Shown: positions 24,703 to 63,912 of the stretch, one piece after another
Position numbering within the stretch: the first letter of the stretch is position 1
Layout: the number at the start of each line of letters is the position of its first letter
Origin: Obrimoposthia wandeli
Lineage: Eukaryota
Direction: 5' to 3'
DNA length: 64,000 bases
Assembly (NCBI GenBank): GCA_977020255.1
Contig: CDROCS010000866.1
Span: 620,001 to 684,000 of the forward strand
Program-made: the position numbers and the translations under genes
The notes under the pieces: model-generated
Told to the model about the DNA's origin: nothing
What the model saw: the letters and a program-made list of their open reading frames with translations, nothing else
The model's database searches: none

Positions 24703-25437
24703 TATTGGGTACTTGAATAACCGATGTTTAGGGAAATGTATTATAAGATATAGAATATGCCTATATTTTTAGTTGATAACTATTTATACGATTGTCGTAT
24801 AAAGTTAGTTTTAAATGTATGATCAAGTGAATGTTTACATATTTAAAATGATTTACTTTCATTACATTTAAAGTGTCAAATTATGTTCCAACAAAACAAC
24901 AGCGGCGGGAAGTTTTATTTCAACATTTTAATTTGAGGAAAATTTGCCACAGTAATTCATCGTTTGCTATAACGAATTGCAAGGAATGAAATGAACAATT
25001 TAGAAATGATGATTTTGATGAGAAGACAAATAACGTTCTGAAGCATCGAAATACTTCGAAGATGAGGAATGAGAAACAGTACTTGACGGAAATCCATATC
25101 AAACACTGAAAGAGCTCTCAGAACCAATAAATGTTAATGAATCGACCATAAGAAAACGTTTGAAAGCTATGGGAATAATTCAAAAACAGCGAAATTAGCT
25201 ACCCAAAGAAATTGGCTAAAAACATTGACAGGTGTTAAATCGAATTGTTACTAGTGACTAAAAAATTAAATTTATTACGATAATCCAAAGAAACAAAAAT
25301 TATAAGTAAAATCAGGCCAACCTCAGAATCAATGTAAAAACCGAATCACCATGCAATAAGGGTATTTTGTTTATTAGATATGATCAGAAAGACATTTTGT
25401 ATTATGAGCAGCTAAAACCGTCCGAAACTACCACTGG
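24703..25437 (+). mobile_element. Mariner (Mos1-like) relic, 5' part, interrupted by the Maverick-like element
   Basis: TIR-like gggtacttgaataa; decayed transposase (NPYQTLKELSEPINVNESTIRKRLKAMGIIQKQ...YEQLKPSETTTG). Confidence 0.85.
25432..25437 (+). repeat. Left 6-bp target-site duplication CACTGG
   Basis: CACTGG immediately precedes the left TIR and recurs at 40860-40865. Confidence 0.95.
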
Positions 25438-25511
25438 AGTAGGGGGATGTGTGACTTCTGGAACAAAGACCGTGGGAAAATTTCAAGAGCGTGGGAACCC
25501 CCCCCCCGAGG
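25438..25511 (+). repeat. Left terminal inverted repeat
   Basis: AGTAGGGGGATGTGTGACTTCTGGAACAAAGACCGTGGGAAAATTTCAAGAGCGTGGGAA(C)10GAGG; reverse complement of 40786-40859 with one mismatch. Confidence 0.97.
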
Positions 25512-25530
25512 GATTTTTTTTTCCCACGGT

Positions 25531-25624
25531 GATGAGTCATCGAACAAAGACCATGAGTCATCGAACAAAGACCATGAGTCATCGATGAGTCATCGAACAA
25601 AGACCATGAGTCACCGATGAGTAA
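25531..25624 (+). repeat. Left subterminal array of GATGAGTCATC / GAACAAAGACC units
   Basis: TGAGTCA at 25533, 25554, 25575, 25586 and 25607; 21-bp and 11-bp units. Confidence 0.9.
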
Positions 25625-26829
25625 TGTCCTTTGTCATGCGACCGTGGGAACTTTCCCATGAGCGTGGGAACTTTCCCACGGTCTTGAGAATTTTCCCACG
25701 CTCAAGTCCTTTGTTCTAATAATTTTCTCAAGATCTACTATAGTAGACATGTACTTTGCAGCTCAACCATCGATGCTATTGACAAGCGGTCTTCACCAAA
25801 GGATACATAAGAGTTCGGACCTTCGACTAAGGTTGATCAGACCTTCGAGAGTTGGACCTTCAAGGGTCAAAAACCTTCAAAGGGTTCAAAATTTTTTATT
25901 TTTCTACTTTTTGATGTTATGGATAATAGACTTGGTCTGAGGTTGGTCCGACCTTCCAAGGACCTTCAAGGGTGGACCTTCAAGGGTCAAAAACCTTCAA
26001 AATTTTCAAATTTTTTATTTTTTCCAAAAAGTTAAAAATTTATTTTTTCAAAAATTTTTGTTTAAATTTTCAAAAATTTTGGCGCTAAAAATTAAAAGTT
26101 TCTAAATCACTTGTACATCATTTTTGCAAAATATTTTCTTCAAAACTTTATTACTTCAAAATCAATTACTTTTAAAACAAAGTAATAAAAAATTTACAAA
26201 ATTTATTTACCTAAATTAAGCTATGTAAATTCCATCTAATATGTTTTTTATTTGCTTACATCACGCATACATGTATGTGTGTGAATAATTAGACAGATGT
26301 TGACACGTGCAAACATAATTAAATGTATGTATGTATGTATATGTGAACATATTTGATTACTAGTAGATTAACAAATACATCAGATGACATCCCTTGCATG
26401 TATGTATATGTAACTACATCATATCAAAAATTTGTTTTAATGCATCAATTTCAATGCCCGAAAATTCAAATATATGTTTGCTATGGTTACAAGTATGTGT
26501 CATTTTTGCTACATCAAGATATATTTACTAAAATGTGGACATCACTTCATCTTATCTCTTCTCATCTAATGTTTTCTAAAGAAACTATGTAATCTTAGAT
26601 GTTAAACTGAAATTAAAAATAGATCAATATTCTACATGTTATTGATTATAGATATTAAATCTCGATTAATATATTGATATTTCTAATGTATACTGTAGTG
26701 TATTCTGATTGGTGGAAGATTGATTAAACAAGCAAACACATAGTAAACTTTGCTAAGAGAAATTGGAGTATAGTAATCCACTGGAATGTCTTCTGATTGT
26801 TGGTAGATTGCTTGAATAGTGAACTTAGA

Positions 26830-27660
26830 CTATATTAATATGTGTGTATGTATGAATACTTACAAAATTTTACAAGCTGACAGAACAAGAAAAAATAGAG
26901 ACTATTGGGTGTATGTATGCATGCATGTCTGAATACTTACAAGAAATACAAGGTATATACAGAACTCTAATTATTGTTATTAATCATTACATCTCTATCT
27001 TTTTCAATTCGAATCAATATTGTTTATCATAATAACAACTATATGTTCTATATTATGTTCTAAAAGTATTGATGTATTGAGGAAATTAATGATATGTTCA
27101 GGAAATTTACAATATTTTGATGATTCTAAAGACTAAATTAATGATATGTCCATGAAATCTATGATATTTAGGACGTTCTAAGGAAGAAATTATATGAGAT
27201 TTAGTAATATTGATTAGCATTGTTTGGAAGTTTTCAGTTGATTGAATAAATTTAGGGAACAGTATACATTGATAGAGTGTGTATAAGAAAATTGACTATA
27301 GTAATATTATATGTCTGTGTGTATGTGTGTGTGTATGAATACTTACAAAAATATATGACAAATATACCTAAGTAATATTGTATGTGTGTGTATGTGTGAA
27401 TACTTACAAAAATTTACAAGTTGAGAGAACAAGGAAAATAGAACATAGAGACCATTGGGTATGTGTGTGTGCATGTGTGTCTGAATACTTACAAGAAATA
27501 CAAGGTATATACTAAAATCTAATCATAAAACATTCCATCTCTATCTTTTTCAATTCCACATCGATATTGTTTATCATAATAACAACTATATGTTCTATAT
27601 TATGTTCTAAAAGTATTGATGTATTCAGGAAATTAATGATATGTTCAGAAAATTTACAAT
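26830..27660 (+). repeat. Internal direct duplication (about 26830-27110 versus 27390-27660)
   Basis: Shared tgaatacttacaag...ctctatctttttcaattc...ttatgttctaaaagtattgatgtatt...ggaaattaatgatatgttcag blocks. Confidence 0.8.
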
Positions 27661-27684
27661 ATTTAGATGCTTCTAGAAGAGAAC

Positions 27685-28265
27685 TCACGTGGAAGTTTAG
27701 TGGTTTAAGAAGGAAAATAACATCGACATTAGGGAAATCTCATGGAAGTTGAATGGTTTAACGAGGAAAATAACGTGGAAGTTAGGGAATTCTCATGGAA
27801 GTTGAGTGGTTTAAGGAGTAAAATAACGTTTGAAGTTAGGATAATCCCATGGTAGTTAGGAAAATCTAGTGGAACTTAGGGAAATATTGCAGTAGTTAGG
27901 GAATTCTCATGGAAGTTGAGTGGTTTAACGAGGAAAATAACGTGGAAGTTAGGGAATTCTCACGGAAGGTGAATGGTTTAATGAGGAAAATTACGTGGAA
28001 GTTACGGAAATATCATGGAAGTTGAGTGGTTTAAGGATGAAAATAACGTGGAAGTTAGGGAATTCTCATGGAAGTTGAGTGGTTTCAGGAGGAAAATAAC
28101 ATGGAAGTTAGGATAATCCCATGATAGTTGAGGAAATCTCATGGTAGTTAGGGAAATCTTCCAGTAGTTAGGGAATTCTCATGGAAGTTGAGAGGTTTAA
28201 GGAGGAAAATAACTTAGTAGTTACGATAATCTCATGGATGTTAGGAAAATTTCATGGATGTTAAG
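27685..28265 (+). repeat. Degenerate tandem array, about 53-bp composite unit
   Basis: Recurring TGGAAGTTAGGGAATTCTCATGGAAGTTGAGTGGTTTAAGGAGGAAAATAACG and its subunits. Confidence 0.9.
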
Positions 28266-29819
28266 AGGTTTAAGAGGAAAAAATATAAGGAAAGGGTTTA
28301 AGGAAAGAATAGCATAGAATCAGACCAATATCAAGCCTACCTCTTTCATTAAAGCAGTCATAGATGGATGTTTTTTAAATAACATTCATAATTTAACCTT
28401 ACTTATACATCAATGTTGATTGAAATATTCTACCTTGCAGTTGTTTAAAATATTCTACGTTGTAGTTGTTTAACTTTAAACATTTTGTTGTAAAAACTAA
28501 GATATTAAGACTTTTGAGTTAGATAATCAGGTTAGGCTAAAGGAAAACATTAGAAATTTTATAAGAATGAATCTAATAATCAATAAATCGAGACATATCT
28601 TCTAACATCTCTATCATGAATCTTCTTTCAAAAACTTTCATCCCTAACTTTCAGAGAAATTATCAAATACCATAAATTCATATATTTCCATACATATTGA
28701 TTATTGAAAAACTGAACTTATCAATATTATCAACATCTAATCTCACTATCATCAACCATCATAAAGTGGTTGATAATAGGAATAATGATTTTTCTAATGT
28801 GTCATTGAGATTTAGACTTTGAAATGGAATAATATAGTTAAATATAGAGAAGACTTAGATGTTTTGATTATCATACAAGCTCGCATACAAAGAATCTTAT
28901 ACCAAAATTATCGATAATACACATATTTCATCTATATCATAACACATGTTGTAAATCCTAATAAAACCTTAACAATAATTCATCATAACTATTTTATTGA
29001 TTAATCTATTCTATCAAGTATCTACTGATTATTGAATCTAGGGGCTATGTTTAATATTTCTAAAGATAGAATAGTTTCTCACCATTTTATTAAGATAGTA
29101 CTATTCATTACTAACGTTTCATAAATCATCTAATTCAATAAATATCAATATTCACATCAATATATCCTTAACTTTCGAACTTCTTATAAAATATTAATAA
29201 ATATAAAGGAGAAAATACGTACCTTTATTAGTTAATTCCATAGAGTCCAAACAGAAGTCACTAAGCCACAGGATGCAATCTTGTATATTCCATTGTAATT
29301 CGGTTGGGTAGACATTGATCCATTGATATTCCGGAAAATGACATCATAATATTGGATTTTTCTTCTTGAGTTTCCATGAATAATATGATGACGTTGCTAT
29401 AAATCAGCTTACATGTTTATTTAAATATATCTTTGTTTATATAAAACTGAGACTCAGATTAACCAATAAGAATAGATGATACAATGTTACTAAAAATAGA
29501 TTATTTTATAGGGTTAAGAAGAGGAAAATCTCATAGTGGTTAAGATGTTTATGGAGAGTTGCTGAACATATTTGCACATAATATATGTAAAGATGTCCAT
29601 CTTCTAATTGGTTGATGCAAGTATTGACTAAATATTGCAAGCTTCTAATTGGATAACAAGAACAAGTGAAGTTGGTACATGTGTACATGTCTATATTTAG
29701 ACATAAATACTATTATAATTATTAACGCGCGCGAATCATACCAAAAATTTTTAAAAATTATTTTTGAAAATGTGTCAAAAATATTTTTTAAAAAATATTT
29801 TTGAAAATGTGCCAAAAAT

Positions 29820-29956
29820 NNNNNNNNNNNNNNNNNNNNNNNNNNNNNNNNNNNNNNNNNNNNNNNNNNNNNNNNNNNNNNNNNNNNNNNNNNNNNNNNN
29901 NNNNNNNNNNNNNNNNNNNNNNNNNNNNNNNNNNNNNNNNNNNNNNNNNNNNNNNN
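29820..29956. other. Assembly gap (137 N) inside the element
   Basis: Run of N; true length unknown. Confidence 1.
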
Positions 29957-30233
29957 TGAATAGTAATTTATTAAATTTTATGCAATAAAGCAACATATTC
30001 CATTAAATTATTATTATTACTTAAATAATTGTCTTTGTTTCTATTCTTTAACAAAAACCTTCAAATGAGATGTAAACTTTAAAGTTTTATGAGTAGATTT
30101 AAATATTTGGAAATTTAAATAAATTTAAAAAGGAAATGGTTAAATAATTAATAGTTTAATTTAAGTTTAGTACTTATTTTAGTAAGTAGATCAAACGTTT
30201 TAAATGTCAAAATAAATTGAATAATAAATTCTA

Positions 30234-30310
30234 ATTGGATACGATTCTTATTGGAAGAAATATATTATTTTAGTATAAAAGAATAAAGCAATAAGAAATC
30301 AGTCTCAGTT
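30234..30310 (+). promoter_or_regulatory. Pol II promoter of pPolB (CCAAT boxes, TATA, Inr)
   Basis: ATTGG at 30234 and 30250, TATAAAA at 30274-30280, TCAGT at 30299 and TCAGTT at 30305 (25-31 nt after the TATA start), ATG at 30321. Confidence 0.65.
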
Positions 30311-30320
30311 ATAAACGAAA

Positions 30321-33300
30321 ATGGTAAGATTTTTGTTATTTTTAAATTATATTTAATTTTTCTTTTAGAATTGCAATATGAATAAGAAGTTATGTTTTGT
30401 GAAGAGTCACGTTGAGTGTGACGAGAAGATGAGGAGCTACTTCGCGCAGAAGTATAATGGCAAGCTGTTCTACGTCTGCCCAGTTTGCCTCTCGTCTGAG
30501 GAGATTGTTTGGGAGGAGTTTGTGGAGAAACATCGCCACCATCTTCGACATTTTCAACAGCGCGGAAAGAAATCTATCTTCCAATCGAGAAGTATTATGC
30601 CTACTCCCATGCCTGTTGCTGCAACCTCTGCGCCACATGGTCGAGCTCCTATACCTCGAAGTCAAGTATCTTCTCCCGCGCCTACTCCTGCTGTTAGCAC
30701 TATGCCTACAAATGCTGTGATCGCTCCCATGCCTGTTGCTGCAACCTCTGCGCCTCATGGTCGAGCTCCTAGTCAAGCCGCTTCTACCGCCCCTACTCCT
30801 GCTGCTCGTGTTAGTAGTATGCCTACGGTTGCTTCTCCGAATGTAGTGGCTCCGGTATTTGCTATTCCTGCCGCGACACGTGATCGAGTGCCTACTCCCA
30901 CATCTGCTTCTCCGATTGTAGTGGCTCCGGTATTTGCTATACCTACCGCTACTCGCGCTCGAGTGCCTTCTACGTCTGCTGCACCTGCGCCTCCACTATC
31001 TTCTCCAATAGCTTCAACATCTGCTGCTGCTGCTCCTGTCTCCACATCAAATGGAGTTGGTATGAGCCCCACTAGCGCGCCGATGGTAGCACCTACCCGC
31101 AAGAGAAGTGTTATGCCCACTTCAGGTAGCTCTGCTGCGAAGTTTACCAGGGTTGATCCCGTGAATCGCAAGACAGGCGTTCGCGGGACAATTGAAACAT
31201 TATCATTAGATGTTTCTAATGATAATATGAGTGAATTAGTTGTTCCTCATTCTTTATTAGCAGCTTTAGCTGATTCTATTGCTCGCTTTACTAGTTGCAA
31301 AATCCAATTCGGAGTGCGTGTTGAATTCACCAACGTAGGAGAGACACGCGCTTGGAATTTCTCCAATAGGGGGCTCCCAATGGATGACGGATTTTTGTCT
31401 GCTGGAGTCGATGCAATTAAGAAGAAGATCGAGAATTATTCTCAAAGCGGGAGTAATTGGACGGTCAATCGATTCCTGGAGATTTCGTTTGTTGTCACGA
31501 AAACAACAACGATTAATTATCTCCAGGGAAGTAGCTATATTCCCACTCCATCGGAATTAGCCTTATCACATTGTGTGATTAATGTACAAAACACAAACAC
31601 GTTTTGCTTTCTATATAGCATTTTAGCTATTATTTTTCGGGAGATATTTCGTTGCAATCCTCATCGAGTTAATCAGTATGAAGGGTTGTTACGTGAATTA
31701 ATTTTTGACGAGGATGAGATGCCGATGCGGCTCTGTAATATTGGACGTTTTGAAAGGAGGAACCCAACTCTTTCTATTAATGTTTTCAGCTTTAATAGGT
31801 TCGCAAATGTATCAACAGAGCGGGATATCTTTAAAAATCCCTATGTTGATATAATTTATAGGACGACAAACCCGAACGGAAGGGAAATCAATCTTCTCCT
31901 TTTAGAGATGAATGATAATTTTCATTACGTGGCTATTCCGAAACTCAATAGGCTACTAAATTACAGGAATAGAGGTGTTTCTAATCGCATTCAGTGTACT
32001 TGGTGCCATAAGTGTCTCCACGGGTTCCGGAGACCGATAAGTTACGCCAAGCACGTTCCACTCTGTAGGATGAATTTAGATCATTCTACACTTTATTCAA
32101 TGCCTACAGAGAAGCATATTGAGTTTACGGATTTTTCAAAAACCATTTCTCCGCCTTTTGCTGTTTACGCGGACTTTGAGGCTGTGCTACCGCCACATGG
32201 AATTTATCACCAGATTCAGCTCCCAATCTCGGCCGGTATGCTCATGTCTCCCGTTGCAGCCACCACTGGGTTTACATATGATTACTCAGTTTTCACTGGA
32301 GAAAATTGTGTAGTCTCTTTTTTGCAGAAGTTGGAGGAACTGGCAAAATTTGTTGTACTCCCATGGTATAAAAATCATGCGATTGAGGTTATGCGCCCAC
32401 TTACATCGGAGCAGAATTCAGGTTTCAATGCTGCAGTAATATGCTACCTGTGTAAGAAGAGGCTAGCTAACAAAGTTCGGGACCACGATCACATGACAGG
32501 AGACTATCTTGGAGCTGCGCATTCTAAATGCAACTTATCAAGGAGATTAAACCGCTCTTTTCCCGTTATTTTTCACAATTTGATGGGATACGATATGCAC
32601 CACATACTGAAGCACGCGTTGAATCGATTTCCGCACTGGAGTATCTCTGTCATACCTCAATCGACGGAGAAATTTCAGGCTATGATGGTGCATATTGAGG
32701 GAGTCTGTATCCGGTTTATAGATTCGTTGCAGTTTTTGTACAGCGGGCTCGAGAAACTTGTTGAGAACCTGGGTGTTACTCCATTGACACATTCCGTCTT
32801 CCCACAACATTTGGTGAGCGCAAAGGGGATTTTCCCATATGACATGGCCGTCTCAGAGACTATTACAACTTTACCACCAATTTGGAGCGACAAGATCAAG
32901 CCGGAACAGTATGAGATGGCGAAGAATGTATGGACGCAATGCGAATGCACATCTCTCTGGGACTATATGCTGGTGTACATGAAGATGGACGTCTACCTGC
33001 TGGCTGATGTCTTCACGGCATTCCGCATCAAGGCTATTGCTGACGACGGATTGGAACCACTCAATTTCTTCTCCATTCCTGGTTTGTAACAAAATATTTC
33101 AATATTAAGTAATCAATTTTAGTAAATTATTGTACAAAATAATTGAATCAGTAATTAATTTTAGTAATTTATTGAAAAGTAAATTGATTTTAGTAAATAT
33201 TTTTATGGAGTATAAATATTACTGATTTATCTTTATTTGTTTTCTCATCACAGGATTGACTTTCGCAAGCGCCTTCAAGTCGCTGCTCCGTCCGGAAACT

Positions 33301-34746
33301 GTCTTGGCTTCTACTACTACTACTACTGCATCCACCTCTGCTGCTGCTGCTTGTGTGATCTCTCCCGCGTCTCCTCCACCTGTGCGAGTCGAGCTCATCC
33401 AGGACCCGGAGATGTATCGTCTTTTTCGGTCTGGGATTCGAGGCGGGATGACCTTCGTGAACGAGCACAAGGTGGATGCCATCAACGGTACCGAACTTTT
33501 ATATATTGACGTGAATAACTTATACGGGTGGGCCATGTCCCAGTTTTTACCTTGTGGCAACTTTTCATGGGTTACTGACCGAATTGAGTTGGGGAATATT
33601 ATCAGTAGTCTTAAATCAGCGGATTTGTCCTGTAGTCGCTTCGCTCATTTATTGGAAATAGATTTATCCGTGCCTAATGAGCTACATAATAAATTTGACG
33701 ATCTCCCAATTGCTCCGATTAAACAGCGTCCACCTGGTTGTAAGACTGAAAAATTATTACTAACACATTACCCTAAGAAACATTATGTTGTCCATTCTAG
33801 ATTGCTACAAATGTACATTAGACTTGGTGCTAAGGTAGATTTTGTATATCGAGCAATACAGTTTGAACAAACTAATGTTTTTTCAAAATATATAGAAGAC
33901 AATTCAATAAAAAGAGCTGCAGCTACAACAGATTTCGAGAAGGATTATTATAAACTGAAGGTTAATTCTTTATTCGGAAAACTCATAGAGAATCTGATGA
34001 AGAGAATTAATCTTCGGATTTGTAATACTCCACAGAAGCTGGTTACCTATTGTAGTAAAGCCCAGTTTCGTAGGACTATTGAAATCGATACAGACCTTAT
34101 CGCAGTTCTACTGAATAAGGAAAATATTGTTTTGGATCGTCCTAGTTATATGGGCCAGGCAGTGTTAGATTTAAGTAAACTTCGTATGTATGAGCTGCAA
34201 TATATACAGTTGGAGAAATATCGAGTGCAATTTAACTGCGATATTAGAATTATAGCAGGTGACACTGATAGTTTTTTCTTAAAGTGTAATAATGTAAATG
34301 TGCAAGGATCACTGTTACCTGCTATGGTTGCTGATGGGCTGTTGGATACCTCGAAATTTCCAAAAACCCATCCGTTATATACAACGCTTAATACGGCGAT
34401 AGGTAAATTCAAAGATGAGAGCAAGGGATTATTTAGCTATAGGCAAGGAATATTTCTACGTCCGAAATCGTACAGTTTAGAGACTACTGAAGGTGAATCT
34501 CAGATGAGAGCTAAGGGTATTAGTCTCCAACAGACGAGTATTAGACACGCTAATTACTTGGCGGTGTATGAGAGTGGGGTTAGTGAGCGAGTACAACAAC
34601 AACGTATAAGCTCACTAAATCATCAACTGTTTACTGTAAGGTTAAGTAAAATTGCCTTAAGCAGTACTGATGATAAGAGGAAGTGGATAGCTAAAAATCG
34701 GTCAGTAGCCTATGGTCACTTTTTACACCCTGATGAAATTGTATAG
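30321..34746 (+). CDS. pPolB: Protein-primed family B DNA polymerase, spliced: join(30321-30323,30369-33081,33254-34746), about 1402 aa
   Basis: ExoI VYADFE, HNH/EndoVII-like CYLC...DHDHMTGDYLGAAHSKCN, ExoII IFHNLMGYD, ExoIII YMKMDVYLL, GIRGG, motif A YIDVNNLYGWAM, motif B KLKVNSLFGK, motif C AGDTDS, RPKSY. Splicing the two GT-AG introns gives 4209 nt with no internal stop. Confidence 0.93.
30324..30368 (+). other. 45-nt intron after an ATG-only first exon of pPolB
   Basis: ATG|gtaaga...ttttcttttag|AAT TGC AAT ATG is in frame with the 30378 ORF; strong donor and T-rich acceptor. Confidence 0.7.
33082..33253 (+). other. Spliceosomal intron in pPolB (172 nt, phase 1)
   Basis: CCT G|gtttgt...tttctcatcacag|GA TTG restores SIPG-LTFASAFK. 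The intron is very AT-rich, and the same position and phase is used in the second copy (39521-39866). Confidence 0.9.
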
Positions 34747-34815
34747 TCACTTTTTACATCCGAATGAAATTGTATAGTTTTATTGTGTTTTTATTCAATC
34801 TTTGTGATTTTAGGT

Positions 34816-34821
34816 AATAAA
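34816..34821 (+). terminator. Candidate polyadenylation signal of pPolB
   Basis: AATAAA 70 nt after the stop codon, followed by T-rich sequence. Weak evidence given the AT-rich background. Confidence 0.45.
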
Positions 34822-34964
34822 AATGTTAAAAATATTTGTCTTTGACTAGAATTATTTCGGATTTGACTAGGAATATTATAAATTATTAATTATTTTACTT
34901 CGTTTTTAAAAATGTTAATTTATTATTATTATTATGCTTATTAATAATAATTATGTTTTATTTA

Positions 34965-35590
34965 AATAGCAGCTGTCGCTTAATCTAAACATGACAGCTG
35001 CTGATAACATTACAAAATATTTAATGTAAATAGCAGCTGTCGCTAATCTAAACATGCGACAGCTGTTGATGACATTGCAAAATATTTAATGTAAATAAGT
35101 TATAATGTAAATAATAATTATATTTAGTTTAACGAAGAAGAACAGCTGTCGCTTAAGATAAATAAAGCACTTAACGTGCGACAGCTGTTGATGATGACAT
35201 CATGGAAACATGATTAATTATTTATATTTCCTTCGGGAAACACGAGCAAGCATCAGTGAGGTAATCACCATCTGTCACTTATCTCATCTAAACACATACA
35301 CACGTGACAGATGGTGATTACATCCTCAAGTAATTACACACGCATGCATGCATTATTGATTTAATCACCATCTGCCATTAATCTAAACATACGCATACGA
35401 GACAGATGGTGTCTACATCCTCGGGTAATCATGTACGCATGCATTATTGATGTAATCACCATCTGTCACTTATCTAATCTAAACACATACGCATGACAGA
35501 TGGTAACTACATCTTCGAGTGATAACACATGTATACATTAGTGATGTAATCATCAACATAATCTAAGCATACACATATTAGATGGTATTA
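34965..35590. repeat. Two tandem families of inverted-repeat (hairpin) units
   Basis: Three CAGCTGTCGC...GCGACAGCTG-type units (34970-35190), then 3-4 units of about 90 bp of the type GTAATCACCATCTGTCAC...GTGACAGATGGTGATTAC (35261-35590). Confidence 0.85.
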
Positions 35591-36806
35591 ATAATTTATT
35601 GCAATAATAATAATAATAATAATAATAATTTTATTTAAGTTTACTAATATTATTATTCATATTTCTCAAATATATATAAATTCACATACACTAATATTAT
35701 TTATTACCATCTTTATTAATCATACACACACATACTCCTTTGTTAAATAATTTGTAATATGTATTGCAACTTTTTGCAATATATTAACACCTTTGTTAAG
35801 TATAAAAGGATAAACACACACACACACACAGGATTTTTTCTTTATTACAAATAATTTCTTTATAATACTAACATTACGATAAAGATACTAGAACATACAT
35901 ACATAAAAAATTAACTTTGTTTCTTTATAAAATAAAAATCAATAAAAAATCAATAAATGTTACAAATAATGGTAAATATTTTAGTTACTTATAAAATAAA
36001 AGTAAATTATTTTAAAATAATTCTTTGTAATTATTTAACAATTTATAAATATAATCTTAAATAAACTACTTATAACAAAAATACCACCATATTACATTAT
36101 TTTAATTAAATGACTTTCAATAATCTTGTTATAATGAAAGGATCCTTTGTTGTACATGTTTAAATAATATAATTATGAAATTGATGTATTTAAACAAAAT
36201 GTCTTTATGATGTCTTTATGTTAATAATTTAAACTAGTACATGCATGAGTAATGTAACCAACATGCTAGATGGAATTTACATCATTATTGATGTAATAAA
36301 ACAAATTCTTTATATAATATAGTAAAATCACAAATACTCGTAACCATAACAAATATATATTTGTATTTGTGGGTATTGAAATTGATGCATTAAAACAAAT
36401 TCTTTTGGTAAAATTACTATACATGATCAGCTTTACACATGTAATTAGATAACTGTTAAAATACATAAGCTTTATTTATCAAATTATATAATACTTATTT
36501 TTATTAGTAGATAGTTTAATTGAATTTAGTTTAAATAAATTTAGAAATTATATAATACTTATTTTTATGAGTAGATAGTTTAATTGAATTTAGTTTAATT
36601 TTAGAATTTAGTTTAATTTTTATTAAATAGATAGCTTGCTTAGCTACTTTTAATAGTAAGTAGCTAAAGTTTTAATAAATAATTTTCTATGTGACGTTTA
36701 AAAACATATTTTGTAGAATTTTCCTTTCCCTCCCATCCCTTTCTTTTGTAGTCCTAATGAGGACTTTGGGTTCGTTCTCAAGTGTGTGTGTTTGTGATCA
36801 AGGGCC

Positions 36807-36992
36807 TCATCGCCAGTTTTCATTTGGTAAGATGAGTGGCTGGTCTTTTGATAACCAACAAATGAAGCCCGGGATCTCTTCTACTTCCAGAGCCTCCCGG
36901 AGCATCAAGCCCTCAGCGAGATAACACTTCTCTGCTAGAGTGTGCTCGCTCTCCATAAGCTCCTTTAACAAATTTTGTCGTTTTTCTTCCAT
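36807..36992 (-). CDS. Small protein A (61 aa), unknown function
   Basis: MEEKRQNLLKELMESEHTLAEKCYLAEGLMLREALEVEEIPGFICWLSKDQPLILPNENWR. GC-elevated island, upstream TATATAAG, and a homologous second copy at 38376-38543. Confidence 0.7.
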   Translation of the reverse strand: MEEKRQNLLKELMESEHTLAEKCYLAEGLMLREALEVEEIPGFICWLSKDQPLILPNENWR

Positions 36993-37934
36993 TAAAAATA
37001 ATGAATTGAAACTAAAATATTTCTCTTATATACTCTTCCTTGGTTAATTAATTTTATTGATGCAGTAAAACAAATTCTCTTTTAATTAATAATGGATAAT
37101 ATAATAAAATTTCGAATTAAATAAAATACATATGATATATAATAACTTAGATATATCCTAATTAAATTTTTATTATACATTTAATTAAATGACTTTTGTT
37201 TAAATAATATTATTATGAAGAAAGGATGCTTTGTTGCATATGTTTAAATAATCTAATTATGAAATTGATGTATTTAAACAAAATGTCTTTATGATGTCTT
37301 TATGATGAATAGTTTCTTTGTTACATAGAAATATTGGTACACACATGTACATATGTATATAAGCTTGAAGACACACACACGCACATAAGATGTATTTTGT
37401 TTAAATAATATAATTATGAAGAAAGGATGTTTTGTTGCATATGTTTAAATAATCTAATTATGAAATTGATGTATTTAAACAATATGTCTTTATGATGTCT
37501 TTATGATAAATAGTTTCTTTGTTACATAGAAATATCAGTACACAGGAGTTGAAAGAGTACACACATGTGCATATGTATATAAGTTAAGCTTGAAGACACA
37601 CACCTGATATGTCTTTTGGTGAAGACTGCATGTTAATACAAGCTTACATAGAAATAGTGGTACATACATGCATATATGTATATAAGTTAAGCTTGAAGAC
37701 ATACACACACACACGCAGGAGATGTGTTTTGGGTAAGACTGCATGTTAATACATGCTTTAGATAAAAATATATATAGTTTTAAATAAAGGCAGTACACAC
37801 ATGCACACATATACTATTTAAGCTTGACCACAGACACACACGCACACGATATGTCTTTTGGTGAATACTGCATGTTAATATAGCCTTTAGATAAACAGAT
37901 ATATAGTTTTAAAGAATGTTACTAAAAATAGAAT

Positions 37935-38000
37935 ATGAGTCATCGATGAGTCATAGGATGAGTCATCTATGAGTCATCGATGAGTCATCGATGAGTCATC
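37935..38000 (+). repeat. 11-bp tandem array of ATGAGTCATCG
   Basis: TGAGTCA at 37936, 37947, 37959, 37970, 37981 and 37992. Confidence 0.95.
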
Positions 38001-38375
38001 TTATGACCTCAGCATGACCTTAAATGACATTGTCCTCATGACGTCTGTCCTTAACTTGAACTTAAATGACATTGTCCTCACCGTGACCTTAAGTTGTCCT
38101 CATGACGTCATGACCTTAAGTTGACCTTAAAGTACATTGTCATCATCATCTAGAGAGAAATAATTCTTCTTTGTAATTATTTAACAATTTATAAATATAA
38201 CCTTAAATAAACTACTTATAACAAAAAGTAGCAAAAGTTTTTAAAAATATTTTAACATATTACATTATTTAAAGACTCTAACCTTAGTTAGAGTCTTTTT
38301 CCCCTTTCCCATTCCCTTGCTTATGAGGCCCTAATGAGGACCGGGGGGTTCGTGTGTGTGTGTGTAAGATGAAGC

Positions 38376-38543
38376 TTAGGCTTCTAGTATGATAGGATTC
38401 TCATCATACCAGAAGCAAATGAAGCCTGGTTGCTCCCAGACTTCAAGCGACTCTTGCTTAAGAAACGGCTTTATGAGCCGAGTCTTCTCCTCTAGGCTTT
38501 TCTCACTTGTCATAATAATTTCGATAATTCTTAAATCTTCCAT
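38376..38543 (-). CDS. Small protein B (55 aa), paralogue of protein A; not in the supplied ORF track
   Basis: Manual translation MEDLRIIEIIMTSEKSLEEKTRLIKPFLKQESLEVWEQPGFICFWYDENPIILEA*. 23 of 55 residues identical to protein A by hand alignment; upstream TATAAAAG. Confidence 0.7.
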   Translation of the reverse strand: MEDLRIIEIIMTSEKSLEEKTRLIKPFLKQESLEVWEQPGFICFWYDENPIILEA

Positions 38544-38769
38544 TTTAAAAATTGTGACAAGAAATGAAAAATATTTCTTCTTTTATATGCTCCCTCCTAT
38601 CTTCTAGTATAATTAATTTATTGATGTAGTAAAACAAAAATCAATTTTTTATTTATAATTCATTATATAAAATTATATCGAATTAAATAAAATGCATATG
38701 ATTATTTTATTTATTGAAATTAAATAATATTCATATGATATATAATAACATTAACAAATAAATGTTGTA

Positions 38770-38805
38770 TTAAGTCCATCGCCTTAACCACTCGGCCATT
38801 CTAGC
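38770..38805 (-). tRNA. 5' half of tRNA-Leu(UAA), fragment only
   Basis: GCTAGAATGGCCGAGTGGTTAAGGCGATGGACTTAA: acceptor 5' strand, D-arm with A-box TGGCCGAGTGG, anticodon 5' stem, CT and TAA, then similarity stops. No 3' half or T-arm nearby. Confidence 0.7.
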
Positions 38806-38988
38806 TCTTTGTTCAACATTATTAAACTAGTTTTTAATAAAAATAATTTAGTAAAATATATGTTACTTATAAATAAAAGTATTATCAATTAAAGAAAATA
38901 AGTTTTGAAGAAAATAAATTTTTGAAGAAAATAAATTTTTGAAGAAAAATTTTCAGAGGCAAAAATTTTCATGTACAAAAAAAAAAAT

Positions 38989-40191
38989 TTCGTCATTTTT
39001 CACAATCTTATGGGTTATGACATGCACCATATATTGAAGCACGCACTATGCAAGTTTCCCGACTGGAATGTATCTGTTATACCTCAATCAACAGAGAAAT
39101 TCCAGGCTATGATGGTGTATATTGGAGGAGTCTGTATACGTTTCATCGATTCCCTTCAATTTTTGAACAGCAGCTTAGAAAAACTTGTGGAAAACCTAGG
39201 TGTGACTCCTCTTACACATTCGGTCTTCCCGCAACATCTGGTGAGCGCCAAGGGAATCTTCCCATACGATATGGCAGTATCAGAGACTGCTCTTCGCGCA
39301 ATCACCAGCTTACCACCAAAGTGGGATGAAAAGATCAAGCCAGCACAATATGAGATGGCGAAGATGATCTGGACTCAGAGCGGCTGCTCATCGCTCTAGG
39401 ACTATATGCTGGTCTATATGAAGATGGACGTCTACCTTCTAGCAGACGTGTTTACAGCATTCCGGACCAAGGCCATTGTTGACGATGGATTGGAGCCACT
39501 CAATTTCTTCTCCATCCCTGGTTTGTATTTTACTAATTTTTCTAATTTTAGACACTAACACATATATATATACATGTATAAGAATAAATGTAGTACTTGT
39601 TACTATTGATTGCATAAAGATGCAGGTTTTTGCAATAAAGATGCAGCACGTCTTTGTAAGTATTGATGATTGTCTTTGTTAGACACACACGTGACTGTCT
39701 TTGTTAGATACTCACACACATATATACATGTATAAGAATAAATGTTACGATTGATTACATAAAGATGCAAGTATTTGCAATATAGATGCGTGACTGTCTT
39801 TGTTAGATAGATGATTTTCAAAGTAATGATTTTCACAATGATTTTAATAAATGTTTTTATTTCCAGGACTGACTTTCGCGAGTGCTTTCAAATCCCTGCT
39901 TCGTCCGGCTTCTTCTTCTGCTCCCGTTGTGCGAGTCGAGCTAATACAGGATCCTGAAATGTACCGACTCTTCCGGTCTGGGATTCGCGGGGGTATGACA
40001 TTTGTTAATGAACACCGCGTTGACGCCATCAATGGTACAGAACTTTTGTACATTAATGTAAATAATTTGTACGGGTGGGCTATGTCCCAGTTTTTACCTT
40101 GTGGTAACTTTTCCTGGGTGACTGATCGGTTAGAGTTGGGGAATATTATTTCCAGCTTAAAATCAGTAGATTTATCCTGTAGTCGCTTCGC
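38989..40191 (+). pseudogene. pPolB: Truncated second pPolB (sister lineage), ExoII to palm start, with intron 39521-39866
   Basis: VIFHNLMGYD...CSSL*DYML...NFFSIPG|LTFASAFK...YINVNNLYGWAM...CSRF. Nonsense change TGG>TAG at 39397-39399; truncated at both ends. Confidence 0.9.
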
Positions 40192-40439
40192 AGGTTTTTG
40201 CAATATAGATGCAGTACGTGACTGTCTTTGTTAGATAGATATAGATTTAAAGTATGTTACTAAAAATAGAATCTTTTTGACTTCACCGTGACCTTAAGTT
40301 GACCTTAAAGTACATTGTCCTCGTCATGACCTTAACTTGACCTTAACTTGCCCTGACCTCATGACCTACATCTTGTCCTCATCGTGACCTCAAGTTGTCC
40401 TCATGACTTTAAATAAAAAATCATGTGTACTCGGGAGAA

Positions 40440-40785
40440 ATTTGACCTACATCTGTCATAAAAAATTTGAATTCAAAAATTTTCGCGCAAATTTCAAAAA
40501 TTTTGACCTATATTATAAATTTTTTGCGCAAATTTCAAACATTTTCAAAAATTTTCGCGCAAATTTCAAAAATTTTGACCTATATTATAAATTTTTGGCG
40601 CAAATTTCAAAAATTTTCAAAATTTTCAAAAAATTTCGGGCAAATTTCAAAAATTTTCAAAAAATTTCGCGCAAATTTTAAAAAATTTGACCTATATTAT
40701 AAATTTTTTGCGCAAATTTCAAAAAATTTGACCTACATTTCAAATTTTTCGCGCAAATTTCAAAAATTTTGACCTAGATTTTTGT
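40440..40785 (+). repeat. Right subterminal A/T-tract array with TTTCGCGC and TGACCTA motifs
   Basis: Recurring aaaaattttcgcgcaaatttcaaaaattttgacctatattataaa units ending at the right TIR. Confidence 0.9.
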
Positions 40786-40859
40786 CCTCAGGGGGGGGGT
40801 TCCCACGCTCTTGAAATTTTCCCACGGTCTTTGTTCCAGAAGTCACACATCCCCCTACT
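40786..40859 (-). repeat. Right terminal inverted repeat
   Basis: CCTCA(G)9TTCCCACGCTCTTGAAATTTTCCCACGGTCTTTGTTCCAGAAGTCACACATCCCCCTACT; mirrors the left TIR. Confidence 0.97.
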
Positions 40860-40865
40860 CACTGG
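40860..40865 (+). repeat. Right 6-bp target-site duplication CACTGG
   Basis: Immediately follows the right TIR; identical to 25432-25437. Confidence 0.95.
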
Positions 40866-41261
40866 TTATCGCTACTGAGAACAATTAGTTAATTTACGAA
40901 AAACTCCCAGAATTTACCAAAAAGCACGAGAAACTGATTCTTCAACATACCAATGCAAGATCGCACAATACATAATGTGTAAAAGAAATATTAAAACGGC
41001 TTCAATGATATGTGTTTGTGCATCACCTTTTTGTTAGACATTATTCCGTCAGATTTCAATTTAATTTTAAGAACTGATATTCAATTATATGAAGATATCA
41101 AAAATTGACCTAATGGCTAGATCACTTCAAAAGAACTGGATCTATTGTGGAATCCATTTACTACTGGGAAAATAGAAATATGACAGCCAGTGATGGATAA
41201 TTTTTCAAAGAAAATATTGTTTGCATTAAAACTAGAGAAAACTTATTCAAGTACCCCTATA
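40860..41261 (+). mobile_element. Mariner relic, 3' part
   Basis: Resumes TGYRY*EQL...KHEKLILQHTNARSH...VKEILK...PSDF; ends in ttattcaagtacccc-ta, the inverse of the left TIR. Confidence 0.85.
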
Positions 41262-57699: not shown

Positions 57700-59987
57700 T
57701 CAGTCGATCGCGAAACAGTTTTAGGTCGATCGCGAGACATTTGTCCCTATTCAGTTATAAAATTCATTTTTAAAAACATGTAACAATTTTTTTTTAAATT
57801 ATAAAATAAAATTATTCTTTTTAAAATTGTTTTAAAATTTAAATTGTCTGAATATTTTTTTAAAAAATTCTAGTGTATAAATTTTGGTAAAAAAAATTTG
57901 TTACTATTTTTTACCATTTTTATATTTTTTCCGTATAAAATATTTAATTCTTAATTTACTATATTTCAAATTACTTTTAATTCTTTATTTACTTCTAAAT
58001 ATTTATTTTATTCATAAAGAAGAAATTTTTTTATAAAGTAAGATATTATTTACTAATTATAATTGTTTATAGTTCTTTATAATTTAAGGTTTATAATGAG
58101 TACATCAAAAAAATAAAATATATTATTTTAATAAAGAATGGGAATCAGAATTCTTTTTAACTATGATTAATGGCAAAATTTGCTGTCTGATCTGTAATTC
58201 GACCGTTGCTATTTTGAAGAAAGATAACATTCAACGACATTTTCTATTTTTACACAAAAAAACTGATGAGGATTATTCAAAAAATTCCGAGATACGAAAA
58301 GTCAAGATAAACAAATCGACATCACTTACTATTGCTTCGTTAAAGGTATGTCATTTATTAGCTAAGGCAAAAAGCCATTTATTGATGGAGAGTTAATGAA
58401 AGAATATTTTATTGCTGCAGTGGAATCCTTATTTTCCGATTTAAAAAATAAAAAGGAAATTATATCCAAATTTAACGATTTGCAACTGTCCAGAACAACA
58501 GTTATGAGAAGGGTTGAAGATTTAAGTTCTAATGTTGATAATCAATTACTGTCAGACATTCGGAGATGTGTAGCGTTTTCATTACAATTTGATGACTCAA
58601 ATGACTTAACCAATGTTGCCCAGCTGGTGGTATTCACCCGTATGGTATTCCAAGATTATTCAAGTAAAGAAGAACTGTTGAAAATAATACCTTTGCATGG
58701 AAGAACAAGAGGAGAAGATATTTTTGCTGCATTTAACAATTTTGTTGAACAGTGCCAACTCCATATTTTTAAATTAATTTCAATTACTACTGATGGTGCT
58801 CCTGCGATGGTAGGTTGTAATTATAACTTTGCAAAAATAATGATAAGTATCCAAAATTTTTAAATTGCCATTGTATGATTCATCACCTGGTACTTTCTAG
58901 CAAAAGATTAAACACTGTAGATGCTATGAGTACTACATTTAAAATTGTAAACTCTATTCAAGGAAAACCATTACAACGGCGCTTATTTAAATGGGAAGCA
59001 AATGATAATGATGAAAAAGACTTCCATTGTACAACACGTTCGTTGGCTAAGTAAAAGTAAATCTCTAAAAAGATTTATTTTATTAATTGATGTTGTCAGA
59101 GATTTTATGTGCCAAAAAAGAGAGAACTACTCCGAATTAAGCAATCAAAAATGATTATTGAACTTATCATTTTTGGTAGATGTTTCCATAAAACTAAGCA
59201 ACTTAAATTTAGAGTTGCAAGGTAAAGATAAAAGTTTAATAGACATGTTAAGTGAATAAGATCTTTTCAACAATTCTTAAATGTTCTGAAGGAAACTTTA
59301 AATTATCGTGAATTTCGACATTTTCCATATTTATTAAAGTTTCTCAACGAAAATCCAAAATTAAGTGATTGTGACTTCAAATATTTTATAAATGAAATAG
59401 AAATAGTCGAGAATGATATTCGTTTTAAGGTTCGCAGATTTCAGTAAAACTGAAGGAATTACCTATTTTGTCAATAATCCTTTTAAACAAAATATAAACA
59501 TAGCAGAAATTTCAGACAGAATTTCTAATTTGTTTGATACAAATCAATCCGCAACAGAACTTGAAATAGTCAAGTTGTAATATAACGTTCATCTAAAATC
59601 AATGAATCAAGAAATGGTGTGGAAATGTACACATGAGAAATTTCCAATATTAACAAGTATTGCTCAGAAATTCTGGCTTGTTTTGGATCAACTTACTTAT
59701 CAGAAGCTGTGTTTTAAAATATGAATATGATAAAAAACAAATATAGAAATCAAATTACAAGTGATCATTTAGAACAATGCTTGCGACTAGCTACATCATC
59801 ATACCAACCTGACTATGAAAGTATTGCAATATCAGGTAATGCCAAATTTCACAATGATTTTCTTTATAATAAATAAATGTGTTCATTTTATAACTTTTGT
59901 ATTATAAATAATTTTTTTACAAGTCGATCACCAAATAACTCGACATACAAAAGTAGCTCGCGTAATATAAAAGGTTGAACACCCCTG
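57700..59987 (+). mobile_element. Decayed hAT transposon (Buster/SPIN/GTF2IRD2-like)
   Basis: CLICNSTVAILKKDNIQRHF, LQLSRTTVMRRV, FSLQFDDSNDLTNVAQL, SITTDGAPAMVG and a C-terminal FGSTY...KNKYR dimerisation motif; frameshifted. Right TIR AGGTTGAACACCCCTG ends at 59987. Confidence 0.9.
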
Positions 59988-63300: not shown

Positions 63301-63627
63301 AGTAATGCAGTAAAATTGCTCGAATCCCTTTGTTTTTCAATTTCCATTAGAATACATATAACCAAGAAAATCAAATATATGATTTTTCAAATGATAATAC
63401 AAACTTGTTATGTAAAAAATATCTTTAAACTGATACCACTTTTATTATGTAAACAGACCCACTCATCCAAAAAAACTCCAAGTAGTCATCCTAAAAAAAT
63501 TAGATGTTCCTTTATGGATAACATAATTTTAAATTTATTTCTGTTACAGTAATTTAATTTATTTTTTAAAACTTTTTATGATCTTAATTAGAGTTGTGTG
63601 AAACATTAGCCAATAACACTGACTGAC

Positions 63628-63912
63628 CTTGAAGGGAACTGGAGTTGGATGAAAGATGGCGTAGTGGAGCAGCGCGTTCTCACCAAGGTCAGCATCTGCA
63701 GCCTTGAGATGACCTACAACCCGGGCTTGGTACTCGGTACCACTGTCTTCTGCCAAGGTCAGATTGTACATTGCCTTCTCGAACTGGGGACTGTTGTCGT
63801 TAATGTCAAGCAAGGTCATGATTACGTCACAGCTGCTGCTGAGGCTTGGTTTACCGTGGTCACTGGCGATGACCTTGATACAAAGGTAAAGTGATATAAG
63901 CTTGTCGAATGA
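63628..63912 (-). CDS. Protocadherin-like gene, exon (cadherin repeat junction)
   Basis: Translation SFDKLISLYLCIKVIASDHGKPSLSSCDVIMTLLDINDNSPQFEKAMYNLTLAEDS...AADADLGENALLHYAIF...PFK contains cadherin motifs AxDxG, DxNDNxPxF and AxDxDxGxN. Flanked by acceptor ttttctcaaatag and donor AAG|gtcagt; 285 nt, phase 0/0. Confidence 0.9.

Follow-up and report, generated by a model that had tools for sequence, protein, structure and literature searches.

In described DREAM elements a CDE or E2F site lies 4 nt upstream of a CHR, the TTYRAA hexamer bound by LIN54, and the same literature reports that TTCAAA works as an inverse CHR and that TTTAAA is among the strongest forms (PMC4974476, PMC5716687, PMC4176359, PMC5683655, PMC3093354). 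The text of the Plk4 paper confirms the 4-nt spacer and leaves CHR orientation unmentioned. DREAM targets in worm, fly and human are described as marked by a hybrid motif together with a periodic T-rich motif, and the worm complex is reported to repress germline genes in the soma and to promote them in the germline. Mammalian CHRs are placed at or very near the start site.

Adenovirus is a protein-primed replicon whose left-end E1A enhancer/packaging domain forms a subterminal block next to the terminal repeat. This block contains E2F sites, A/T-rich repeats and an orphan-receptor site, and its E2F sites are used in Rb-family repression and persistence (PMC4726734, PMC5033970). The adenovirus packaging A-repeats are described as A/T-rich and 21 bp apart near one end; COUP-TF binds them incidentally, with binding that does not track function. 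Among transposons, Brassica and Arabidopsis MITEs carry E2F sites that E2F is reported to bind in vivo (Henaff 2014, cited in PMC5950925). Polintons or Mavericks (Adintoviruses) are 13-25 kb long and have terminal inverted repeats (TIRs), a 6-bp target site duplication (TSD), an AGT-type terminus and a protein-primed family B polymerase (pPolB); intact vertebrate Mavericks are described as intronless (PMC8097293, PMC10748475, PMC8502044). How Polintons are activated, and in which cells, is not addressed in the literature examined. ROR and Rev-erb relatives are reported as clock and moult-timing factors, and the Bmal1 promoter carries paired ROREs, WAWNTAGGTCA monomers in close repeats (PMC6956161, PMC10902330). 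Our search of the openly accessible literature listed no paper that deals with E2F, DREAM or receptor sites at the ends of Polintons. AGGTCA-rich MITEs reportedly occur in marine invertebrates, a report that the search did not recover.

Here we describe an array at one end of a Polinton-type element in a 64-kb window (the whole stretch of DNA analyzed) from Obrimoposthia wandeli. Like the CDE/CHR and E2F/CLE DREAM elements, it combines a GC-rich core, a 4-nt spacer, TTYRAA and a periodic T-rich context. Those elements, as described, are single or few and sit at host start sites, whereas here the unit recurs eight times in tandem within a transposon, with ROREs in between and the nearest candidate TATA 1.9 kb away. 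Like the E2F-site MITEs, it is a case of a transposon amplifying E2F sites, with binding in vivo reported for the plant elements. However, the MITEs are described as short and non-coding, with CHR pairing and receptor sites unmentioned in the source, and this is an animal Polinton derivative with a polymerase gene. The array shares its position and all three kinds of site with the adenovirus left end, but adenovirus, in the accounts cited, has no tandem array, and the adenovirus A-repeat consensus is missing from ours. The element itself resembles Polintons in size, ends and polymerase; unlike intact vertebrate Mavericks it has two predicted spliceosomal introns in the polymerase gene, and unlike the Polintons described it consists mostly of non-coding arrays, with integrase and ATPase undetected. 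The ROREs recall those of Bmal1, except that five sites stand 41-112 nt apart, interleaved with E2F-CHR units, in a transposon.

A first-pass annotation had interpreted the array as an S-phase- and hormone-responsive module at the origin. That interpretation is partly supported: the array is a real feature, its motif counts are inflated, and the interpretation, partly right, is sharpened here to a putative DREAM-type composite. Judging from the arrangement of its motifs, we tentatively favor an amplified DREAM and nuclear-receptor cis-regulatory module of a Polinton-derived element, a reading to which we give a little short of an even chance.

The element and its genes

The element spans 25438-40859 (15.4 kb) and has AGTAG...CTACT ends. 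Its left TIR (25438..25511, plus strand) starts with AGTAG directly after the TSD CACTGG at 25432-25437, and its right TIR (40786..40859, minus strand) ends with CTACT before the second CACTGG at 40860-40865. The element is recent: the TIRs are 74 nt long and 73/74 identical and the 6-bp TSD is perfect. TIRs, a 6-bp TSD, an AGT-type terminus and a size within 13-25 kb all place it among Polintons/Mavericks. Cadherin-like exons of a host gene on the minus strand lie on either side of it, so it is probably intronic; the host is an animal whose genome has 28% GC. A transmembrane/cytoplasmic exon had no match among 771 candidates, and a cadherin exon had only generic matches at 31-44%. The element is rich in duplications and arrays, and non-coding arrays account for most of its length. 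Elsewhere in the window, a fragment at 58396-58863, which we take to resemble a hAT-family transposase, has no matching family in Pfam.

The pPolB gene lies at 30321..34746 on the plus strand, with PF03175 above cut-off in both exons. Its reading frame is open, and it has 623 relatives (the best 53-57% identical). The N-terminal region is long and rich in Pro/Ala/Thr, and endonuclease VII is matched weakly. Two GT-AG spliceosomal introns are predicted, of 45 and 172 nt. Support for the second comes from frame arithmetic, from homologues that continue through it and from a partial, interrupted second polymerase copy (38935..40210, plus strand, ~80% nucleotide identity), which has an intron of 346 nt at the same junction.

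Two small ORFs lie on the minus strand: X1 (36807..36992, 61 aa) and X2 (38376..38543, 55 aa). They are 42% identical, and codon positions 1-3 are identical at 27, 33 and 17 of 48, a coding pattern. We take the boxes upstream of them to be TATA-like; that of X1 is ~40 nt upstream, and that of X2, at 38587, is the nearest candidate TATA to the array at ~1.9 kb, with the polymerase TATA 10.2 kb away. Both ORFs point inward from the array's end of the element and are candidate targets of the array, X2 being the nearest. Neither has a Pfam match, X1 has no usable Atlas match, and there was one weak repetitive match, P0212.

A scan of bacterial and archaeal genome contigs for relatives with termini gave five distant loci out of 65 candidate stretches, with polymerases that are 31-43% identical. 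A tblastn search with ORFs of at least 100 aa from four of these loci, two of the query loci carrying both an integrase and a packaging ATPase gene, found neither gene in the element outside the unread 137-N gap; the polymerase alone matched. For capsid and protease, where the queries included no confirmed capsid, we found no long non-polymerase ORF, and the 10 short ORFs outside the array had no Pfam match. The two long distant loci yielded no TIR pair. L003 and L004 are autonomous Polintons only distantly related to the element, and their contigs, deposited under a bacterial genome assembly, are probably of eukaryotic origin; GTCCTT(C/G)ACCTT or TGACCT words are repeated upstream of their polymerase genes (L003 7095-7800, L004 7313-7810).

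A minisatellite of two amplified founder units

The array is a minisatellite at 40438-40785 (plus strand) that adjoins the right TIR. It is built from eight A units (20-21 nt, GC core), six B units (21 nt, TGACCTA core) and four C units (9-10 nt, A/T tract), with A and B following one another as B A B A A B A A A B A B A B. The feature, which lies immediately interior to the right TIR, consists of two amplified founder units set on an A-tract scaffold with a 10.2-10.3-bp phase. Since a CHR lies at +4 from its core, the A unit has the layout of a DREAM/MuvB tandem site; the B unit is a predicted monomeric nuclear-receptor site (RORE).

All A units lie on the plus strand. Three consist of the core TTTCGCGC, a 4-nt spacer and the CHR TTCAAA (40481..40498, 40553-40570, 40747-40764), a fourth has the same core and spacer with TTTAAA, also a known CHR (40665..40682), and a fifth has the core TTTGGCGC with spacer and TTCAAA (40594..40611). 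Three more GC-core units lack TTTSSCGC and keep the CHR at +4. In TTTCGGGC (40634..40651) the core CGGGC fails the E2F consensus and fits CDE BSSSSS; in TTTTGCGC (40522..40539, 40706-40723) the core TGCGC misses both E2F and strict CDE by one base. Five B units match WAWNTAGGTCA on the minus strand (40504..40514, 40576-40586, 40688-40698, 40729-40739, 40770-40780). The sixth TGACCTA unit, at 40443, lacks the RORE 5' extension and, with a copy at 40362, forms a pair of near-misses on the same strand.

Word searches confirmed all 11 motif sites listed by the first-pass annotation, which comprise TTTCGCGC at 40481, 40553, 40665 and 40747, TTTGGCGC at 40594 and, in the left arm, at 26078, and the five ROREs. 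They are all the matches in the window (six to TTTSSCGC, five to WAWNTAGGTCA), with none to either in 48.6 kb of host flank, and the motif identities agree with the published consensus strings TTSSCGC and WAWNTAGGTCA. Two descriptive points need amending. The A/T tracts are not pure, as they carry a recurring C that creates TTCAAA, and the alternation of the two motifs is only rough, the cited sites running E R E R E E R R E R (E, E2F; R, RORE).

An order-3 Markov model built from the host flanks predicts 1.8 TTTSSCGC and 0.7 RORE matches per 64 kb, and 0.010 and 0.004 per 346 bp; the latter pair is misleading because the region is a tandem array. The caution that tandem amplification would inflate the counts was well placed: two 20-21-bp founder units were amplified, so each motif goes back to roughly a single founding event. 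Counted in that way, a lone E2F or RORE match in the element is nothing unusual, with a single match anywhere in its 15.4 kb expected 0.44 and 0.18 times, respectively.

These features suit an explanation by neutral amplification, in which self-complementary A/T tracts undergo slippage and folding while the element replicates by strand displacement, one GC-rich and one TGACCT variant are amplified with them and the motif matches are chance hits among many known motifs. The array has nested TRF periods of 10, 21, 31, 41, 72 and 112, its strand folds better than shuffles (z=-3.7, 0/100 as good), and duplications and arrays run throughout the element. The expectation of 0.44 for one E2F match points the same way. 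Two other possible functions of the array were tried and rejected or gave nothing: frames of 92-108 aa within it are repeat artefacts with sub-threshold Pfam matches only, and Rfam gave 0 matches to structured RNA in 25400-40900.

A CHR at fixed distance from the core in every A unit

Neutral amplification of chance matches does not predict the spacing within the A unit. TTYRAA, the CHR hexamer, lies exactly 4 nt downstream of the GC core in 8/8 A units, and the sole CHR change among them, TTCAAA to TTTAAA, stays within the consensus. The composite TTSSCGC-N4-TTYRAA is found in five of the eight and nowhere else in the window, including 0 matches in the 48.6 kb of host flank; BSSSSS-N4-TTYRAA is found in six, against one in the host flank, and two units fail both TTSSCGC and BSSSSS by one base. 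When spacers of 0 to 10 were examined, only 4 gave matches for TTSSCGC with TTYRAA. BSSSSS and CHR are also paired at spacer 6, on the opposite strand, in four units. With the core taken as given, three nulls put the probability of a CHR at +4 at 0.01-0.07: 0.0096 by letter shuffle (0.019 for either side), 6/120 by run permutation (8 for either side) and 55/2272 among host A/T-rich 13-mers. The first-pass annotation had not picked its sites by this spacing.

The E2F core on its own fares less well. Among 1679 letter-permuted decoys, six reached five matches, too many for a search over about a hundred motifs, so E2F alone is not significant post hoc. We also compared changes among units with a neutral expectation based on the substitution spectrum of 184 differences in 10 internal duplications, in tests that have tiny event counts and assume a repeat history. 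The eight A units show four substitution types, three of them in the core. The expectation of a core more conserved than its spacer failed within the array (2/4 changes keep TTTSSCGC, P=0.69); change in the E2F core is no slower than in the spacer, as it would be under neutrality. The strict CDE-CHR composite allows 3/4 changes (P=0.21, within the array only), and only a relaxed five-letter core of our own allows 4/4 (P=0.056). We rejected CpG decay as the cause of core variation, with CpG o/e at 0.80 in the host vs 0.68 in element non-coding DNA and 2/3 core changes being C to G. CHR density was likewise set aside as evidence: there are 15 sites vs 2.4 expected and a host maximum of 9, yet TTYRAA ranks only 20th of 180 permuted hexamers in the scaffold.

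Outside the array, TTSSCGC-N4-TTYRAA is absent from the 5 distant polymerase loci, in which termini were not located, and TTTSSCGC is absent from them save for one match in L002. The left arm has a lone BSSSSS-N4-TTYRAA at 26455-26470, which is not significant with ~0.3 expected in the element. A CHR at +4 would suggest, in place of simple S-phase activation, a repression that holds during quiescence and is lifted in cycling or germ cells.

Conservation and origin of the RORE units

The RORE consensus is met by 5/6 B units in the array. Here core conservation did hold within the array, with TAGGTCA invariant in 7/7 copies. All three change events in the five full sites fall at degenerate N/W positions (P=0.0035), as do three of four when the near-misses are included (P=0.012); the numbers are small. 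Chance amplification does not predict this pattern (0.004-0.012 overall). Ten of 40000 RORE decoys reached five matches.

The B unit has a probable neighboring source. An adjoining 11-mer array at 40277..40420 (minus strand) holds seven AGGTCA half-sites, with two pairs 5 nt apart and one pair 2 nt apart, and has a paralogue at 38004-38150. Because the B unit is homologous to the 40362 copy in this array, it has a single origin, and the AGGTCA array is its likely source. The homology also fits neutral amplification. At 40354-40372, a pair of AGGTCA half-sites separated by 2 nt, with a 5' extension that leans towards A/T, resembles the RevDR2 layout; their neighbors are spaced at 5 nt. As for a possible hormone response, induction of HR3 and E75 by ecdysone is arthropod biology. 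Within a host cadherin exon, at 63624-63877, five CAAGGTCA matches occur, a clustering of AGGTCA words without a regulatory reading.

A hand estimate, which assumes ~130 motif classes and 19 arrays, puts the joint post hoc chance at ~0.14 for E2F and RORE, and at 0.003-0.01 when the CHR is included. Given the CHR spacing and the RORE pattern, we regard neutral amplification with chance matches as somewhat less likely than the module that we favor.

A-tract phasing and related scaffolds

The suggestion that the A-tracts are phased was borne out: their centers recur at 10.2-10.3 bp, with vector lengths of 0.75 and 0.70 from copies that are not independent. A 300-nt window at the array ranks 14th of 1265 for 10-11-bp AA/TT periodicity. 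A-tract phasing and a hairpin-prone strand together back both bending and slippage-driven amplification. Phased A-then-T tracts bend DNA, so the array could be a structural accessory whose tracts bend DNA or exclude nucleosomes by the TIR, aiding terminal protein-polymerase loading or integrase synapsis, with the cores as mere spacers. The phasing and the contact with the TIR are as such a role would have it, and T-stretches are reported to mark open promoters in planarian stem cells.

The placement of the array "at the origin" is right in that it adjoins the right TIR; it lies outside the TIR, however, and the left TIR is not accompanied by an inverted version of it. In protein-primed replicons both ends are expected to be origins, and a pure origin role is weakened by the missing counterpart. 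In addition, a 53-bp array at 27.7-28.2 kb scores higher in periodicity, and a structural role leaves the 4-nt CHR spacing and the RORE pattern unexplained. We consider it quite unlikely as the whole explanation, although a structural role can coexist with the module that we favor. That the array is instead a helper-recognition signal, comparable to the packaging domain of adenovirus and read by proteins that an autonomous Polinton supplies as helper, is highly improbable: it is one-ended, subterminal and A/T-rich with the 21-bp register of adenovirus A-repeats, and a non-autonomous element would need such cis signals, but 40270-40860 has 0 matches to TTTG-N8-CG on either strand, genes for capsid, ATPase or integrase were not detected in the element, and a Polinton packaging signal was not met in the literature examined.

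Two related scaffolds occur in the element. One, in the left arm (26000..26110, plus strand), has the same orientation as the right array and carries TTTGGCGC at 26078 and four TTYRAA. The other (29725..29819, minus strand), ~450-550 nt upstream of the polymerase TATA, has a CGCGCGCG stretch, four TTYRAA and divergent cores. It runs into the 137-N assembly gap (29820-29956), ~320 nt upstream of that TATA, which may hide a longer array. The +4 core-CHR composite is absent from both scaffolds, and the divergence of their cores is in keeping with neutral amplification.

Host-factor words in other arrays of the element

We examined the remaining arrays with a panel of 11 factor words, chosen after viewing the sequence. 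At least four copies of a panel word occur in 9/19 element arrays, some of them paralogous, whereas 0/15 host arrays contain even two copies, which speaks against neutral repeat growth. Decoy panels of 130 motifs score a mean of 2.8 arrays and reach 9 in 2/3000 trials; with 300 motifs per panel, they reach 9 in 4% of trials. This context test is supportive, not decisive. The words repeated in the other element arrays are ones that we take to be AP-1, CSL, NF-kB, E-box and receptor half-sites.

TGAGTCA, which we assume to be AP-1-like, forms one array per arm, with five copies at 25520-25625 and six at 37930-38003. The plus-strand order in both arms is TGAGTCA array, GACCT array and A/T-tract scaffold with GC core. 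CGTGGGAA, presumably CSL/Su(H)-like, occurs twice per TIR and five more times just inside the left TIR (25438-25705, 40786-40859). The 53-bp array (27678-28263, ~10 copies) has six GGGAA(A/T)TCTC words, in our assumption NF-kB/Rel-like, and the strongest 10-11-bp AA/TT periodicity in the window; core conservation was tried there and dropped, its five full units being too uniform to inform. Just downstream of the polymerase gene, at 34956-35580, are small hairpins with CAGCTG and CAGATG stems, six copies each.

Discussion

If the array is an amplified DREAM and receptor module, its history and its action could be linked as follows. Replication slippage of the element would multiply the units, and selection would keep those that bind host factors. 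Host E2F-DP with LIN54/MuvB on the A units would repress in quiescent cells and release or activate in cycling, stem and germ cells. ROR/HR3 vs Rev-erb/E75-type receptors on the B units would supply developmental-timing or clock input, and the A-tracts would keep the block nucleosome-poor. The output might be transcription of the inward-pointing small genes, with the polymerase gene reached at a distance or after excision; alternatively, it might be the opening of the adjacent terminus. The element would thereby act in settings that offer both host replication factors and a heritable lineage.

A wider proposal, built on motif content across the element, is that this Polinton lineage shed its virion and integrase genes and kept a spliced polymerase and two tiny genes, with its non-coding DNA becoming a bank of host-factor arrays: DREAM and RORE at the right end, and AP-1-, CSL-, NF-kB-, E-box- and AGGTCA-like words elsewhere. 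Such an element might read host proliferation, developmental timing and stress, and carry DREAM modules to new insertion sites. We hold this to be somewhat unlikely as a complete account.

Should the array instead be neutral, it would show that amplified A/T repeats easily mimic enhancers. If the regulatory reading is true, DREAM would silence the element in quiescent soma and license it in dividing or germ cells, much like the control of adenovirus persistence by an E2F/Rb site, and such elements would be a source of dispersed DREAM and RORE clusters.
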